This document shows, piece by piece, positions 2,853 through 8,995 of a DNA stretch of 64,000 bases. A program made the translations under genes and the position numbers. Origin of the DNA: a virus (Duplodnaviria; Caudoviricetes); IMG/VR virus record IMGVR_UViG_3300035208_002115; one strand, 5' to 3'. The notes below the pieces were generated by a model. It saw nothing but the letters and a program-made list of their open reading frames with translations, was not told the DNA's origin and searched no databases. Position 1 is the stretch's first letter. Each line of letters begins with the position of its first letter.

Positions 2853-3281
2853 ATGGCTATACTCAATTACACCACTTCAATAAAATGTGAAAAGACATTA
2901 ATGGAAATACAACAATGTCTGGTTAAACACGGTGCAACTAAAATTGTAACCGATTATAATAATCAAATACCAATAGCTGTCACGTTTTGTCTTACAATAA
3001 ATGATAAACTGATAGCTTATTCACTACCAGCTAATTATAAAGGTGTCCTGAATTCTATGAAAAAAGACCATAAAGTCCCTCGGAAATTAGTAACAGATGA
3101 ACAAGCTCTCCGAGTTAGCTGGAGAATTATAAAGGATTGGGTAGAAGCTCAATGTGCAATAGTAGATGCTCAACTGGCTGACGTGGCCGAAGTATTCCTA
3201 CCATACGCTGTTGCAAAAAGTGGTAAAACTCTTTATAATGAGATTAAAGATGGTGGAATGAAAATGTTGATGGAAGGGTAG
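2853..3281 (+). CDS. hypothetical phage protein
   Basis: 142-aa ORF (..RVSWRIIKDWVEAQ..EVFLPY..), directly upstream of iscB. Confidence 0.7.
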   Translation: MAILNYTTSIKCEKTLMEIQQCLVKHGATKIVTDYNNQIPIAVTFCLTINDKLIAYSLPANYKGVLNSMKKDHKVPRKLVTDEQALRVSWRIIKDWVEAQCAIVDAQLADVAEVFLPYAVAKSGKTLYNEIKDGGMKMLMEG

Positions 3282-3339
3282 ATTTTTTTATTTAATATTT
3301 TTTATTTACTTTCGTATATTATTTTTTATTTAATTTTAT

Positions 3340-4929
3340 ATGAAGAACAACCCAATTTATGTTATAGATTTCAACGGGCAACCATTAATGCCAACATTCA
3401 GATATGGTAAGGTTCGTCATATGCTTAAAAATAACCAAGCAAAAATAATAAAAAGAGACCCATTCTTTACTATTCAATTATTAACAAACACATCGTCATA
3501 TATACAGTATATTATTGGTGGTATAGATATTGGTGAAACCGTTGGAATATCGGTAATAAACCCAAAAAATAATACTGAAATATTGTCTGCCGAATTAAAA
3601 ACACGTAGTAAAGATATTCCAGATAAACTTAAAGAAAAAACTCAATATAGAAGAACCCGAAGAAATCATTTAAGATATAGAACAAAAAGATTTGAGAATA
3701 GGAAATCTTCATTAGGTAAATGTAAAGTGTGTGGTGGTAATACTAAAAGTGGAAAAGAATTTTGCTCAACATGCTTAGATACAGTTAATGGTAATCATAA
3801 TGCTTATAAAGATATTTCTAAAACTACATCACAAAAAAGACTTGCACCAAGCGTAAATCATTTAATTGATGCCAATCATAAAATTATAAATAAAATAAAT
3901 GAAATATTACCTATTAAAGAAGAAAATTGGATATACGAAAAAGTTAAATTCGATATACAGAAAATAGAAAATATTGATATATCAGGTGTTGGATATCAGC
4001 AAGGTGATATGTTTGGTTTTTCAAGTTTGAGAGAATATATATTAGAAAGAGATGAACATACATGTCAAAACCCCAACTGTAAACATAAGAATATTAAAAA
4101 CCTAAAAAAAGGTGAAAATGTTTATTTGAAAAATAATATTACATTAGTAACACATCATATAATATTCAGACATCTTGGTGGCACAGATAAACCAAGTAAT
4201 TATATTACGTTGTGTACTGATTGTCATATACCAACAAATCATCTAAAGGGTTATTTTTTATATGATTGGTGTATAAAAAAGAAAAAAGTTAAAAGTGATT
4301 ATAAAGCTGCTACTAAAATGAATGTGGTCGCTTCTTCTTTTGATGAAAAAAAGAATTTTATACCCACGTTTGGTTCTGAAACAAAAAGAAAAAGACAATT
4401 GATTGGTTTAGATAAAACCCATTCGAATGATGCCCTTTCTATTTGTATAGATAAAAATAATTTTGATTTGATTGATGATTCTGGAAAAAAGAAAGTTGTT
4501 TTAAAACGAGATTTCAATTTAAAAAAAATAGAACATCCTGATTATCTTATTCAAACAAATGGTCGTTCTAATGGTAGACGAGCATTAAGTACATTTCAGG
4601 ATTCTAAATATATTGATATCAGAGATGGAAAAGAAAAATCAGGAAAAGAGTTATCAAAAGAAATGGATAAACGAACACTTATAAATAATAATAGAATTTA
4701 TAGGGGAAAGAAAACAAGTAAAGGTTCTTTTGTTAAAAGAACTGGTATAAGTGAATTTCCAAATAATTCAATTATCGAATTTACATATAATGGTAAACAT
4801 TTTATTAAAGTGTGTGGTGGTGTAACTGGATATAATGTATATGTTAAAGATTTCGAGAAAAAAACAGTTGCAATAAAAAAATGTAATGTAAAAATAATCT
4901 GTAAAAGAAAAGGTGTTATTAAAAAATAA
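3340..4929 (+). CDS. iscB: IscB RNA-guided endonuclease (OMEGA; CRISPR-associated), 529 aa
   Basis: N-terminal GQPLMP; RuvC-I GIDIG (D63); Arg-rich bridge helix RRTRRNHLRYR; RuvC-II IYEKVKFD; HNH THHI..RHLGGTD..SNYITLCTDCH; RuvC-III KTHSNDA; extra CxxC-x10-CxxC insert after the bridge helix. Confidence 0.95.
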   Translation: MKNNPIYVIDFNGQPLMPTFRYGKVRHMLKNNQAKIIKRDPFFTIQLLTNTSSYIQYIIGGIDIGETVGISVINPKNNTEILSAELKTRSKDIPDKLKEKTQYRRTRRNHLRYRTKRFENRKSSLGKCKVCGGNTKSGKEFCSTCLDTVNGNHNAYKDISKTTSQKRLAPSVNHLIDANHKIINKINEILPIKEENWIYEKVKFDIQKIENIDISGVGYQQGDMFGFSSLREYILERDEHTCQNPNCKHKNIKNLKKGENVYLKNNITLVTHHIIFRHLGGTDKPSNYITLCTDCHIPTNHLKGYFLYDWCIKKKKVKSDYKAATKMNVVASSFDEKKNFIPTFGSETKRKRQLIGLDKTHSNDALSICIDKNNFDLIDDSGKKKVVLKRDFNLKKIEHPDYLIQTNGRSNGRRALSTFQDSKYIDIRDGKEKSGKELSKEMDKRTLINNNRIYRGKKTSKGSFVKRTGISEFPNNSIIEFTYNGKHFIKVCGGVTGYNVYVKDFEKKTVAIKKCNVKIICKRKGVIKK

Positions 4930-4967
4930 TTTTTTTATATCATTATTTTTTTTATTTTTACATTTAA

Positions 4968-4976
4968 GTTCTTTGA
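4968..4976 (+). promoter_or_regulatory. boxA-like antitermination element upstream of the CRISPR array
   Basis: GTTCTTTGA; the same 9-mer recurs at 6232 and 6585 inside the tRNA cluster. Confidence 0.5.
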
Positions 4977-5032
4977 AATTTTGTTAAATATCGATTAAGC
5001 AGTCACACCTTAAAAATGCGACTTTGTAACTT

Positions 5033-5504
5033 GTTGTGTATTGCTTTCAATTAATTAAGTAATTCAGTTATATAGTTGTGTATTGCTTTCAATTGATTGG
5101 GTAACTCAGTGGAGCAATATTTATATTAAATCAAAGCAGGGTTGTGTATTGCTTTCAATTGATTGGGTAACTCAGTATAAAATAATAGAATTAGAAAAGC
5201 GGTTAAGTTGTGTATTGCTTTCAATTGATTGGGTAACTCAGTGGTTGCTATTGATGGCATCGTGTTAGCTTTGTTGTGTATTGCTTTCAATTGATTGGGT
5301 AACTCAGTTTCTTCTTAGCAAGTTTAGTCGCATTCAGTGTTGTGTATTGCTTTCAATTGATTGGGTAACTCAGTTTATATCAGGTTTTACAAATGTGGCA
5401 ACGTTGTGTATTGCTTTCAATTGATTGGGTAACTCAGTAAGATATCTATGGTGATGAACCTTGGGATAGTTGTGTATTGCTTTCAATTGATTGGGTAACT
5501 CAGT
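5033..5504 (+). CRISPR. CRISPR array, 8 x 36-nt repeats GTTGTGTATTGCTTTCAATTGATTGGGTAACTCAGT
   Basis: Repeats start at 5033 (degenerate, 4 mismatches), 5075, 5141, 5207, 5273, 5339, 5403, 5469; spacers of 6, 30, 30, 30, 30, 28 and 30 nt. Confidence 0.98.
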
Positions 5505-5790
5505 ATAGCAATAAACAAATCGTTGTTAATCAATCATTTGAAACTAAAATCCGATGTAAAAAATCGAATTTTTTGAACACATTTAGACTAAGAGAAAGGA
5601 TTTTTCCAATCCTAATATCTACGTTATGTTAGAATGTGGATTAAACCACAAATAGGTACGTTAGTGTGATTCCCAAGCACTATCTTCTACGGTTGTTTTT
5701 TAAACATCTCTGTGCAATAGGAGAAGTGAAAACAACAATAAACCTAACAATAACTTTGTCAAAGGGAACTAACAGGATTTATTCCTGATT
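5505..5790 (+). ncRNA. omegaRNA/HEARO-like scaffold with 5' anti-repeat segments (tracr-like), contiguous with the last CRISPR repeat
   Basis: Ordered omegaRNA-type motifs AGACTAAG, CTACGTT, ATAGGTAC, CCCAAG, TCTACG, TAAACA, AGTG, AAACC, ATAACTTTGTCAAAGGG; 5507-5518 and 5525-5543 are complementary to the repeat; boundaries approximate. Confidence 0.8.
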
Positions 5791-5818
5791 TATTGATATT
5801 TAACAATTTCAAAGAAAT

Positions 5819-5857
5819 AATAAAAGCAGATGATTTATTTATCTGCTTTTATTTTTT
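5819..5857 (+). terminator. intrinsic terminator closing the CRISPR-omegaRNA transcript
   Basis: 13-bp stem AATAAAAGCAGAT/ATCTGCTTTTATT followed by a T-run. Confidence 0.75.
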
Positions 5858-5877
5858 AAAAATAATTGCAACAAAAA

Positions 5878-5908
5878 TTTGTTTATATCGTAATAAGTAT
5901 TACATTTG
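5878..5908 (+). promoter_or_regulatory. Bacteroidota sigma-A-type promoter for the tRNA operon
   Basis: TTTG (5878-5881), 19 nt, TACATTTG (5901-5908); matches the -33 TTTG / -7 TAnnTTTG consensus. Confidence 0.7.
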
Positions 5909-5984
5909 CAAAGTCAAAATGGAAAAAAGTGACCTTTTTGACTTAATATATAAGAAAACAAAAACAAATTTAAAATAACGCAAA

Positions 5985-6071
5985 ATGCTACTTTGTAATT
6001 TATATAATATGTATCTTAATAACTTAGAGAATGATAAAACTCTGGGCAGGGATATACTATGTATAAGTTAA
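5985..6071 (+). CDS. putative attenuator leader peptide MLLCNLYNMYLNNLENDKTLGRDILCIS (28 aa)
   Basis: ATG 5985 to TAA 6071 between the promoter and a terminator; overlaps GGCAGGG (6045-6051), which can pair with the terminator 5' arm. Confidence 0.7.
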   Translation: MLLCNLYNMYLNNLENDKTLGRDILCIS

Positions 6072-6100
6072 AAGCGGTAAAGCATTAAAATATACAACGG

Positions 6101-6130
6101 AAACCCTGCCAGATTTGGCAGGGTTTTTTT
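6101..6130 (+). terminator. intrinsic terminator / attenuator just before the first tRNA
   Basis: AAACCCTGCCA-GATT-TGGCAGGGTTT plus T-run; alternative pairing available with 6042-6051. Confidence 0.85.
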
Positions 6131-6139
6131 GTTTTATAC

Positions 6140-6220
6140 GGCTTCATGGTGGAATGGCAGACACGTTAGTCTTAGGAACTAATACCGAAAGGCGTGAGGG
6201 TTCAAGTCCCTCTGAAGTCA
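6140..6220 (+). tRNA. tRNA-Leu(UAG)
   Basis: GGCTTCA/TGAAGTC acceptor stem, loop CTTAGGA, long variable arm, GGTTCAAGTCC T-arm. Confidence 0.93.
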
Positions 6221-6365
6221 CTAAAAAAAGAGTTCTTTGAAGAAATAAGGTTAGTAATCTGGACGCTTAACCAGCAGAAGGGTGAAGTTTCCTTGGAAGA
6301 AATTGATACAAACAGGCTTTGGTGGTTCTTAGCAATGTGTTGATAAAGTGACCGAAAACATAAAT

Positions 6366-6438
6366 GGAGCGTGTGGCGTAATTGGTAACGTGTATCCCTG
6401 TCACGGATAAGTTCGGGGTTCGAGTCCCCCACGCTCCG
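6366..6438 (+). tRNA. tRNA-Asp(GUC)
   Basis: GGAGCGT/ACGCTCC stem, loop CTGTCAC, GTTCGAGTC. Confidence 0.9.
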
Positions 6439-6446
6439 CTTAATTT

Positions 6447-6521
6447 GGTGCATTGGGCTTCGAGAAGGAGAACATGGTTGTCACCCATGTAAAATTAACG
6501 GATTGTCACCGTTATGCACCG
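6447..6521 (+). tRNA. atypical tRNA-Asp(GUC)-like RNA
   Basis: Perfect GGTGCAT/ATGCACC acceptor stem and CATGG-TTGTCAC-CCATG anticodon arm, but non-canonical D arm and T loop. Confidence 0.55.
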
Positions 6522-6650
6522 CTTAAAATTCACAAAATGTGATTTACAAATTGTGAATTCTCGATTTGCTAATTGCGAATCGATGTTCTTTGACGTATTG
6601 GGAAAAGGTATTTAAAATACGCCAGTGTGGATAGGTTCACACTGGTAAAT

Positions 6651-6724
6651 GGGGGTGTAGCGTAGTTGGTTAGCGCAACTGACTGTTAATCAGTAGGTCG
6701 TAGGTTCAAGTCCTACCACCCCCG
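6651..6724 (+). tRNA. tRNA-Asn(GUU)
   Basis: GGGGGTG/CACCCCC stem, loop CTGTTAA. Confidence 0.93.
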
Positions 6725-6732
6725 CATAAAAT

Positions 6733-6817
6733 TTCGTTGTGGCAGAGTGGTCAATTGCAACAGGCTCATATCCTGTGGTTAGAAATAACTTCGTGGGTTC
6801 GAATCCCACTGACGAGA
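6733..6817 (+). tRNA. tRNA with CAU anticodon (Met/Ile2) and long variable arm
   Basis: ACAGG-CTCATAT-CCTGT anticodon arm, variable arm GGTTAGAAATAACTTC, GGTTCGAATCC T-arm. Confidence 0.8.
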
Positions 6818-6824
6818 CAATAAT

Positions 6825-6896
6825 GGACATGTAGCTCAGAGGCAGAGCGACACCCTGTTAAGGTGAGGGTCGGGATTTCGATATTCTCCTTGTCCG
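6825..6896 (+). tRNA. tRNA-Asn(GUU)
   Basis: GGACATG/CTTGTCC stem, loop CTGTTAA, T loop TTCGATA. Confidence 0.8.
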
Positions 6897-6910
6897 CTTT
6901 TTAAAATATA

Positions 6911-6998
6911 TGCGAGGTGGTGTAACTGTTAACACGCTTGGCTCATAACCAAGAGACATCAAATGCTTGTGTGGGTTAGAATCCCACCTTCGCTCCCA
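6911..6998 (+). tRNA. tRNA with CAU anticodon (Met/Ile2), extended variable region, encoded CCA
   Basis: CTTGG-CTCATAA-CCAAG; GTGGG-TTAGAAT-CCCAC. Confidence 0.75.
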
Positions 6999-7095
6999 TT
7001 AACAATTTTTGTCGTAGTGGACGACAACCATTCAGGTAAGCTGGGTATCAAAATTTAACCATCAAGAAAGTGAGAGGCTTTCATTAAAAATATAT

Positions 7096-7169
7096 CGCAG
7101 GGTAGAGCAGTTGGTAGCTCGTCAGACTCATAATCTGAAGGTCGTGGCGTTCAAATCCCACCCCTGCAA
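7096..7169 (+). tRNA. initiator-type tRNA-fMet(CAU)
   Basis: CGCAGGG/CCCTGCA with C1:A72 mismatch; loop CTCATAA. Confidence 0.85.
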
Positions 7170-7175
7170 CTAAAT

Positions 7176-7247
7176 GCTCGGTTCGTATAGTGGTTAGTAC
7201 ACAACACCTTCAATGTTGTTACAGGGGTTCAATTCCCCTACCGAGTA
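7176..7247 (+). tRNA. tRNA-Glu(UUC), C at position 33
   Basis: GCTCGGT/ACCGAGT stem; CAACA-CCTTCAA-TGTTG. Confidence 0.8.
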
Positions 7248-7255
7248 CAAAATTT

Positions 7256-7338
7256 GGATAGGTAGCGAAGTGGTCAAACGCAATTGACTGTAAATCAATC
7301 ACTTACGAGTTTCGCAGGTTCGAATCCTGCCCTGTCCA
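7256..7338 (+). tRNA. tRNA-Tyr(GUA)
   Basis: GGATAGG/CCTGTCC stem, loop CTGTAAA, long variable arm. Confidence 0.93.
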
Positions 7339-7349
7339 CTTACTTAAAT

Positions 7350-7424
7350 GTTCGGTTCGTCTAACGGTCAAGGACGGCAGGTTTTCATCCTGTTAATAGG
7401 GGGGTTCGATTCCCCTACCGAATA
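7350..7424 (+). tRNA. tRNA-Glu(UUC)
   Basis: GTTCGGT/ACCGAAT stem, loop TTTTCAT. Confidence 0.88.
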
Positions 7425-7427
7425 CTA

Positions 7428-7763
7428 TTATCTCTCAGTATTAATCCAATAAGATTTGATATTTTCCTTGGCATCTTCGTCATATTCGATATATACTTCG
7501 CCTAAAGTTCTACCGTATTTTGCTAACCAAATACGTTTTTCATCGGCTAAACGATACCTGTTTTTCTTATCATATTCGACCGTTTCTATTCTATCGAGTT
7601 TACTATATAATTGTTTCTCGAATTCTTCTTTGGATATATGTTTAAATTGATTGTCTTTATGTTGTTCAACATAGGTTAAATATATAGCACGGTCAAAACG
7701 TTGTTGGTGTGTTTCACCGAAATCTTCATTTAAGAATTGGGAAAAGGATTGAACATTTTTCAT
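7428..7763 (-). CDS. hypothetical protein with N-terminal FxxFLNE motif, antisense within the tRNA cluster
   Basis: 111-aa ORF MKNVQSFSQFLNE; AATATATA motif upstream. Confidence 0.7.
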   Translation of the reverse strand: MKNVQSFSQFLNEDFGETHQQRFDRAIYLTYVEQHKDNQFKHISKEEFEKQLYSKLDRIETVEYDKKNRYRLADEKRIWLAKYGRTLGEVYIEYDEDAKENIKSYWINTER

Positions 7764-7842
7764 GATAAATAAAAATATTTTTTATTATATATTAAACATC
7801 TTACCATAATTTGACTATTTATAGAAAAATATTTTAATTAAT

Positions 7843-8025
7843 ATGATGGATGTTTCAGAATATAAAAGAAGAAGAAGACGTGCTTTAAAAGCAGTAAAGG
7901 CTCATACAAAATATAACAAACAAGAAGTGAAAGAATATTATGCTACTTGTAAATCCTATAAACAAACAATGGAACATTTTGGGATGACAAGTAAAGGCAC
8001 ACTTCATTGGAATTTAAATAATTAG
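7843..8025 (+). CDS. small hypothetical protein
   Basis: 60-aa basic ORF. Confidence 0.45.
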   Translation: MMDVSEYKRRRRRALKAVKAHTKYNKQEVKEYYATCKSYKQTMEHFGMTSKGTLHWNLNN

Positions 8026-8108
8026 CCCTCATGTCGAAAGTTTGGTAGCCGAAGCAGTTTCAAACACTGTTGCTGAAAGGCGTGTAGGTTCGAGTCCTAC
8101 TGGGGGTA
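8025..8108 (+). tRNA. tRNA-Leu(CAA)
   Basis: GCCCTCA/TGGGGGT stem, loop TTCAAAC, long variable arm. Confidence 0.88.
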
Positions 8109-8140
8109 CATACTATATTGATAAAAAATAATAATTTTAT

Positions 8141-8995
8141 GTGATTAAAAAATGTGAGAATTATGATAAAGAAACATTAGATAAAATAATACAAAAATGT
8201 TTTTCAATAGCTGGAGTTTGTAGAGAATTAAATATAAAAGCAATTGGTGGTAATTATAAAACTATAAAATATTATATCAATGCTTATAATCTTGATATAT
8301 CACATTTTACTGGTAAAGGCTGGAATATAGGTGAAAGATATAATAACGTTAAAAATAAAATCCCTTTAAGTGAAATATTAGTTGAGAATTCCACATATAC
8401 AAATACACATTTATTAAAGAAAAGACTTGTTAAAGAAGGTTATTTTGAATATAAATGTAATGAATGTGGATTAACTGAATGGTGTAATAAACCAATTTCC
8501 TTGCATTTAGACCATATTAATGGCGATAATTTAGACCATAGAATAGAGAACCTAAGATTATTATGTCCGAATTGTCATAGTCAAACAGAAACTTACTGTT
8601 CTAAAAATAAAAAAAGTTCAAAAAATACATTAAGAATACATAATTTTATTGAAAATAAAGATTTCTTAATCAATAGAGAATCAAAGAAACAAAAACATTA
8701 TTGTGAATGTGGTAAAGAAATAGAAAAAAGGGCTAAAAAATGCAGAGAATGTTATAAAAAAGATAGAACTGAAAGTGTTAAACAAAAAAATCATTGTGCA
8801 TGTGGTAAAGTGATTAAAAATGAATCAGTGATGTGTTTGGATTGTTTACATAAACATAACAGAAAAGTGGAAAGACCATCATATGAACAATTAATTTTAG
8901 AAATTAATGAATCTTCTTATACCTCAGTGGGTAAAAAATATAATGTTGCAGCTAAAACCATTAAAAAATGGAAATTAGCTTATGAAAGAATTTAA
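8141..8995 (+). CDS. free-standing HNH (homing-type) endonuclease with C-terminal zinc-ribbon repeats
   Basis: CNEC...LHLDHINGDNLDHRIENLRLLCPNCHSQT; repeated CxCGK...CxxC units. Confidence 0.9.
   Translation: MIKKCENYDKETLDKIIQKCFSIAGVCRELNIKAIGGNYKTIKYYINAYNLDISHFTGKGWNIGERYNNVKNKIPLSEILVENSTYTNTHLLKKRLVKEGYFEYKCNECGLTEWCNKPISLHLDHINGDNLDHRIENLRLLCPNCHSQTETYCSKNKKSSKNTLRIHNFIENKDFLINRESKKQKHYCECGKEIEKRAKKCRECYKKDRTESVKQKNHCACGKVIKNESVMCLDCLHKHNRKVERPSYEQLILEINESSYTSVGKKYNVAAKTIKKWKLAYERI

Follow-up and report, generated by a model that had tools for sequence, protein, structure and literature searches.

CRISPR-associated IscBs (CRISPR: clustered and regularly interspaced short palindromic repeats) were reportedly described by Altae-Tran and colleagues in Science in 2021. 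Canonical IscBs of the OMEGA type have a single guide that derives from transposon-flanking DNA and an upstream omegaRNA with a 5' hairpin, and are often mobile with TnpA. The CRISPR-associated forms have been named 'CasIscBs', and TbaIscB has been placed as the founding member of the Cas9 lineage, with RFxNR, a CxxC zinc-finger insert and LxPS flanking inserts that resemble the recognition (REC) lobe (PMC13180657). For DelIscB, DNA cleavage was shown and the enzyme has since been engineered; its non-coding RNA lies upstream of the open reading frame (ORF) and holds spacers, repeats and an anti-repeat (PMC12660989). Here, we describe an iscB gene followed by a CRISPR array, an anti-repeat, an omegaRNA scaffold and a terminator in a 64,000-nt stretch of phage DNA (the window), which comprises bases 125,370-189,369 of the 675,678-bp IMG/VR virus record IMGVR_UViG_3300035208_002115. 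All parts were present, intact and co-linear, and were kept in related loci. We assign a probability of roughly 0.7 to the reading that the locus encodes a CRISPR-guided IscB effector of the CasIscB kind. A preliminary description, made from the sequence of the window, had presented CRISPR-associated IscBs as rare. This overstated their novelty, since they were already described, DelIscB has been engineered, and CRISPR-linked IscBs were present on several IMG/VR viral contigs. The CRISPR-linked IscB is a known kind; new is a phage clade with the array and the omegaRNA downstream of the gene and with repeats like those of Bacteroidota type II systems. Among the papers listed by a full-text literature search, none treated IscB together with jumbo or huge phages, which is weak evidence of absence.

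Like DelIscB, the phage protein is a small IscB with PLMP, RuvC and HNH, and past the last repeat of its array there is an anti-repeat that is fused to the omegaRNA scaffold. Also as in DelIscB, no cas1 or cas2 was located nearby. The preliminary description had noted the lack of tnpA, cas1 and cas2 in the window; for Cas1 (PF01867) and the Y1 transposase (PF01797) the absence extended across the whole 675,678-bp record, while Cas2 was not searched for separately. In contrast to DelIscB, in which the array and the non-coding RNA are upstream of the ORF, both were downstream here and in the related loci L004, L010, L090 and L171. Compared by description rather than by sequence, the phage IscB also differed in length (529 versus 457 aa) and in carrying a zinc-finger insert. 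In addition, the phage locus resides on a 675-kb phage and its repeats share their 5' sequence with those of Bacteroidota type II systems. With OgeuIscB (PDB 7xht/8csz), the phage system shared the fold, the catalytic residues and the HEARO scaffold core. The coordinates of all features are given in Table 1.

Table 1. Features of the phage IscB locus, with positions counted from the first base of the window
Feature	Position	Strand	Details
Intergenic gap, AT-rich	3282-3339	+	58 nt between the upstream ORF (2853-3281) and iscB; no omegaRNA found by Rfam
iscB	3340-4929	+	ORF, 529 aa
Candidate start of the array transcript	4959-4979	+	TACATTTA box, then immediately AAGTTCTTTGAAAT; putative function
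Degenerate repeat nearest the ORF	5033-5068	+	4 mismatches; 103 nt past the iscB stop codon
CRISPR array	5075-5504	+	Seven identical 36-nt repeats GTTGTGTATTGCTTTCAATTGATTGGGTAACTCAGT, six unique spacers
Full repeats (starts)	5075, 5141, 5207, 5273, 5339, 5403, 5469	+	36 nt each
Spacers (starts)	5111, 5177, 5243, 5309, 5375, 5439	+	30, 30, 30, 30, 28, 30 nt
Linker	5505-5524	+	20 nt, last repeat to anti-repeat; loop upon cis pairing
Anti-repeat	5525-5555	+	31 nt; imperfect pairing with repeat nt 1-31, RNAduplex -18.3 kcal/mol
OmegaRNA scaffold core	5575-5773	+	Rfam HEARO (RF02033), 67 bits, E 1.8e-12
Small 3' scaffold hairpin	5773-5787	+	CAGGATTTATTCCTG
Terminator hairpin plus T-run	5822-5857	+	Predicted end of the array-omegaRNA transcript

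The preliminary description had named a complete IscB with RuvC and HNH motifs, an array about 100 nt past the gene with 36-nt repeats and mostly 30-nt spacers, an omegaRNA-like scaffold followed by a terminator, and an upstream gap of 58 nt; each of these was borne out. Sequence, profile and fold all identify the 529-aa protein as an IscB. Pfam matched RRXRR (PF14239, 5e-42, residues 6-124) and HNH, and solved IscB structures were matched by sequence with E-values from 8e-36 (TbaIscB) to 1e-30 (OgeuIscB). The PLMP motif at residue 15 was followed by an arginine-rich bridge helix. The RuvC residues D63 (RuvC-I, GIDIGE), E200 (RuvC-II) and H361/D364 (RuvC-III) and the HNH residues H272/H273, C292/C295 and H296 were all present, and an alignment with OgeuIscB placed the RuvC and HNH residues in catalytic columns. 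Other motifs were RFENR (117-121), a CxxC..CxxC zinc-finger insert (128-145) and LAPSV (168-172), and the C-terminal domain was beta-rich. D63, E200, H361, D364, the HNH residues and two four-cysteine clusters were invariant in 15 aligned clade members. The AlphaFold2 (AF2) model had a predicted local distance difference test score (pLDDT) of 73. Its top Foldseek matches were OrufIscB, OgeuIscB and TbaIscB (E 1e-23 to 4e-17), and IscBs ranked first, IsrB next and type II-D Cas9s after.

The HEARO match lacked the 5' hairpin of the model, and in the predicted fold the repeat:anti-repeat duplex stands in for exactly this missing hairpin. The segment that begins with the last spacer and ends with the terminator folded with a z-score of -4.3, with the repeat:anti-repeat stem formed in cis. 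The terminator had been missed by a simple consensus scan, probably owing to its large loop. At the other end of the array, only 6 nt (TATATA) separated the degenerate repeat from the first full repeat. The TACATTTA box just past iscB differed by one base from the Bacteroidota -7 motif TAnnTTTG. A core GTTCTTTGA, 40-100 nt 3' of the stop codon, was found at the same place in five of six distinct aligned loci, L010 being divergent, and an exact TAnnTTTG box preceded the GTTCTTTGA-containing motif in L004, L090 and L171, while the window copy had one mismatch. We infer that this region is the start of the array transcript. The 14-nt sequence ATGCNACTTTGTAA had two copies in the 675-kb genome, one immediately ahead of the first array repeat (5016-5029) and one about 140 nt ahead of the first tRNA gene (5985-5998); with only these two copies, it was rejected as a general promoter. 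The oldest spacer (5111-5140, GGAGCAATATTTA...AATCAAAG) resembled the linker and the start of the anti-repeat (5505-5540, ATAGCAATAAACA...AATCAATCA), and the first 'spacer' of L010 was likewise a diverged copy of upstream sequence. Both may be traces of how the arrays originated.

The closest proteins (P0002-P0017, 42-62% identity) were encoded on short metagenomic contigs. In four relatives (43-62% identity), iscB was followed by an array, and three of these also had the anti-repeat and the omegaRNA. Locus L004/5/6 (protein P0002) had three repeats of 36 nt and a HEARO match of 71 bits, locus L010 (L010/11, P0011) 11 repeats of 45 nt and a HEARO match of 72 bits, and locus L090 (P0008) 12 repeats of 36 nt and a scaffold identified by eye. 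At least six repeats of 36 nt were found in L171 (P0013), whose contig ends before the scaffold; the contigs of L007-L009 end 160-180 nt past iscB. In the window, L004, L010 and L090, the degenerate repeats were the ORF-proximal ones, with progressive decay in L090, and the anti-repeat came right after the last repeat. Repeat:anti-repeat energies in L004 and L010 were -21.4 and -19.7 kcal/mol, compared with -18.3 kcal/mol in the window. RNAalifold of the four RNAs gave 73 pairs, 32 of them with compensatory changes, including pairs of the repeat:anti-repeat stem and of the terminator. None of the 33 spacers of the window and the four relatives was common to different loci. Because relatives conserve it, the array-omegaRNA layout is more than chance.

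An exhaustive profile search indicated that the clade is small (about 10 clusters at 50% identity), and the best 150 profile matches contained no long Cas9-like protein. In IMG/VR, a search with the single IscB protein found nothing, and one with the clade profile found distant IscBs only. The phylogeny proposed in the preliminary description was constructed for IscBs, leaving out Cas9, TbaIscB and DelIscB. In this FastTree phylogeny of 145 IscBs, the proteins of the group formed one clade (18 rows, support 100), and the downstream layout was verified in five clade members. The sister group (support 98) included P0125 (L170), with a canonical upstream omegaRNA, and L025, whose array lies upstream of iscB on a viral contig of 248 kb. 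Another clade member, P0122, is 616 aa long and adjoins a T4-type portal gene (L168). The locus of the 616-aa member (L169:2308-2790) had the omegaRNA downstream and the GTTCTTTGAAAT motif, with no visible array; about 240 nt of unique sequence occupied the expected array site. Arrays upstream of iscB were found in other lineages (L025, L037, L038, L040, L043, L049, L093, L095, L102, L103 and L122). This DelIscB-type order occupied at least five separate tree positions, which fits a repeated, independent linkage of IscB with CRISPR.

The first 18 nt of the phage repeat, GTTGTGnnTTGCTTTCAA, were looked for as a pair of copies 40-70 nt apart in one genome per prokaryotic species. At least 120 loci carried such a pair, almost all of them from Bacteroidota among the matches listed (Flavobacterium, Chryseobacterium, Bacteroides, Prevotellaceae, Chitinophagaceae, Algoriphagus and others). 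The repeats of these host arrays were 46-47 nt long, or 36 nt in three loci, the spacers were 30 nt, and the two examples checked were cas9-cas1-cas2 loci. In the sense of the CRISPR RNA (crRNA), degenerate repeats were confined to the 5' end in 17 arrays, and no array had decay at the 3' end. In many arrays, an anti-repeat started about 25 nt past the last repeat on the same strand (e.g., L173, L175, L194, L198 and L208), and the terminal repeat and the trans-activating CRISPR RNA (tracrRNA) of the host could form a natural single guide. The phage array had all four traits of Bacteroidota type II-C loci such as that of Flavobacterium cellulosilyticum (L173), namely a repeat with the same 5' 18 nt, spacers of 30 nt, decay of repeats with the same polarity, and an anti-repeat that comes after the array. 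The type II geometry of 36-nt repeats and mostly 30-nt spacers, asserted in the preliminary description, was confirmed; the repeat begins with GTTGTG, and its 5' 18 nt are common to Bacteroidota cas9 arrays. Unlike the phage locus, the Bacteroidota loci encode a Cas9 of 1200-1350 aa, cas1 and cas2, and their repeats are mostly 46-47 nt. Rfam detected neither a tracrRNA nor HEARO in seven host type II loci. Type II-like repeats also accompanied other CRISPR-linked IscBs (GTTGTA...ACAAC in L025, GTTTTAGAG...AAAAC in L038 and L043). The upstream arrays of the latter two (L038:4508-4749 on a 92-kb viral contig and L043:4562-4736 on one of 175 kb) had GTTTTAGAGGTAAGTAATTTCAGAGGGTTACAAAAC repeats, which we take to resemble the type II-A Cas9 repeats of Firmicutes. 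The simplest reading of these repeats would be that IscB lineages repeatedly adopted type II repeat/anti-repeat modules from co-resident Cas9 systems.

The preliminary description had further called the system an IscB-to-Cas9 intermediate. This applied to the organisation only and not to the protein, since the phage IscB, unlike Cas9, keeps PLMP and a full-size omegaRNA and has a small zinc-finger insert in place of the REC lobe. Among solved structures, TbaIscB was the best single-sequence match and the only IscB aligned over the full length (residues 9-527), and both proteins had RFxNR, the CxxC zinc-finger insert and the LxPS motif, whereas the HNH region differed. Against the clade profile, TbaIscB scored 205 bits over its full length, OgeuIscB about the same over residues 9-365 only, and the type II-D YnpsCas9 52 bits; more than 150 ordinary IscB clusters outscored TbaIscB. 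At the sequence level, this is a likeness to the base of the Cas9 lineage, without evidence of membership. The repeats suggest that a type II RNA module was captured, or that spacers were taken up with the host's help, rather than that the system stands on the Cas9 stem. Because they resemble the repeats of present-day Bacteroidota type II systems, a later capture fits better than ancestry. A more specific proposal is that the phage IscB lineage took over the type II-C guide module of a Bacteroidota host (repeat, anti-repeat position and polarity) and that the array would still be extended by host Cas1-Cas2 in trans. We put this forward tentatively and judge the odds to be against it.

In a CRISPR-guided IscB effector of this kind, one transcript would start just 3' of iscB, near the candidate start site, and run through the array, the anti-repeat and the scaffold to the terminator. 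The last repeat would fold onto the anti-repeat over the 20-nt loop and yield a natural single-guide omegaRNA with spacer 6 as the guide. The remaining spacer-repeat units would pair in trans with the anti-repeats of further omegaRNA molecules and, in the manner of type II systems, undergo trimming by an RNase of the host. IscB would bind the scaffold, and its RuvC and HNH domains would cut DNA matching the repeat-proximal part of the spacer beside a target-adjacent motif (TAM). New spacers could come from the type II Cas1-Cas2 of a Bacteroidota host in trans, or the array could be static. The system would most likely be used against rival phages or other mobile elements that share the host; this step has the least support, because no protospacer was found.

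A syntenic locus was present in a sister phage (G001, IMGVR_UViG_3300037067_007156; 639,979 bp, direct terminal repeats, rated 100% complete) at G001:394218-397529 on the minus strand (L304). In this phage, most of iscB is deleted; what is left of the gene, about 104 codons, is joined directly to a repeat. Two repeats (with two changes relative to the window repeat) were retained, as were the anti-repeat, the omegaRNA and a single spacer of 30 nt with a different sequence, and the remnant was 82% identical to window positions 5403-6444. The G001 locus implies that the system is older than the split of the two phages, that it can be lost and that the scaffold-proximal spacer differs. Near 351 kb, the sister phage encoded a second, canonical IscB with an upstream omegaRNA (L046). 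This IscB and that on a 422-kb phage contig (L054) were different from the clade proteins (about 32% identity in the tblastn match), and their upstream HEARO matches of 89 and 103 bits were above the Rfam gathering score.

Several observations weigh against a working effector. The loss of most of iscB in the sister phage means that the system is dispensable. The energy of the repeat:anti-repeat pairing by itself was about 2.3 standard deviations better than that of shuffled sequences, and 4 of 200 shuffles were equally good. The HEARO score was below the Rfam gathering score of 83, and a separate omegaRNA promoter was not identified, which leaves the scaffold supply for trans pairing unexplained. 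Furthermore, spacer searches returned no protospacer in the 675-kb genome itself (up to seven mismatches) or in the sister phage, no credible match in cultured phages (window, L010 and L090 arrays as blastn queries), no IMG/VR match to exact 20-mers of spacers 3, 4 and 6, and no match for any of the 33 spacers (six from the window, 27 from relatives) in all fetched loci. The spacer of the sister phage also had no match in the 675-kb genome. A match to a Flavobacterium phage was rejected as a chance hit, as it spanned a spacer end plus repeat (87% identity, E 0.04).

The alternative that survives best, in our view still unlikely, is that the locus is a recently inactivated or decaying relic that no longer defends or attacks. 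The lack of a target for any spacer, the truncated iscB of the sister phage fused to a repeat, and the degenerate ORF-nearest repeat with its 6-nt stub would all suit a relic. Set against this are the full-length ORF with all catalytic and zinc ligands conserved, the seven perfectly identical repeats, and an anti-repeat and scaffold that covary and persist in relatives whose proteins are 43-62% identical.

Slightly less probable is a role in host takeover or gene regulation, in which the guides would be aimed at the host chromosome or at genes of the phage itself and not at rival elements. Huge phages reportedly carry CRISPR systems, and the genome of the host lay outside the searches. However, the phage's own genome was without a match even at seven mismatches, and in five sampled Bacteroidota genomes the listed matches to the array were mostly those of repeats to repeats, no spacer being clearly matched. 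The intact RuvC and HNH domains argue for cleavage over binding alone.

We give marginally less weight again to the idea that the array and the anti-repeat act mainly as an RNA decoy against a host type II Cas9, the repeats soaking up host tracrRNA or Cas9, or the anti-repeat soaking up host crRNA, with IscB secondary. The match of the first 18 nt of the repeat to Bacteroidota Cas9 arrays would be expected of a decoy, as would the retention of two repeats and the omegaRNA in the sister phage despite its largely deleted iscB. However, the pairing of host repeats with the phage anti-repeat was not clearly better than that of shuffled sequences (median -12.9 versus -10.6 ± 3.0 kcal/mol), the anti-repeat covaries with the phage's own repeat, and within the clade the array lay beside an intact iscB wherever the flank was visible. 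An ordinary mobile IscB element (IS200/IS605, OMEGA) that lies beside a repeat array by chance is very improbable. Such elements typically carry members of the IscB and HEARO families, but no Y1 transposase was found, IscB and HEARO were single-copy in the 675-kb record, the omegaRNA is downstream and has no 5' guide hairpin of its own, two megaphages have the locus at a syntenic position, and the anti-repeat matches the array repeat. Because the record lacks adaptation genes and a transposase, and because relatives keep the same arrangement, the system looks domesticated rather than mobile, as the preliminary description had proposed.

If the locus is a CRISPR-guided IscB effector, a CRISPR-fed IscB would be a maintained tool of a phage lineage with at least two very large members, and not a one-off. 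The clade defines a second, downstream architecture for CRISPR-linked IscB and ties an IscB array to the contemporary Cas9 arrays of the likely host phylum. Two questions thereby become testable: whether a foreign Cas1-Cas2 can supply spacers to an effector without adaptation genes, and how easily an omegaRNA is split into crRNA and tracrRNA-like parts. Were the type II-C module indeed taken over and extended in trans, the phage would be drawing on host adaptation machinery to equip a miniature nuclease, and the transition from IscB to Cas9 would have a parallel in the present day. On the practical side, the locus would provide a predicted nuclease of 529 aa together with a defined guide scaffold and an array that is multi-guide by nature.

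The 675-kb record was accepted as that of a very large phage because it encoded a Gp23-type major capsid protein (543,360-543,989 of the record), contained no detectable 16S rRNA gene and had 16 tRNA genes in the window alone, because ORFs near iscB matched phage HNH endonucleases, an SbcC-like protein and ATPases, and because the standard code 11 fitted, stop-codon reassignment gaining little open reading frame. Its G+C content was 27.4%, CheckV estimated 98% completeness, and IMG/VR labelled it 'provirus'. Directly past the omegaRNA terminator and ahead of a dense array of 12 tRNA genes (6140-8109), a promoter-like TTTG-N19-TACATTTG site was found at 5878-5908. Counts of the TTTG-N17-21-TAnnTTTG promoter were rejected as an indicator of the host phylum, as the 38 sites genome-wide equalled the approximately 38 expected from base composition in a back-of-envelope estimate. 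Within the tRNA gene region, an ORF at 8141-8995 resembled HNH homing endonucleases (phrog_10822, 6e-51).

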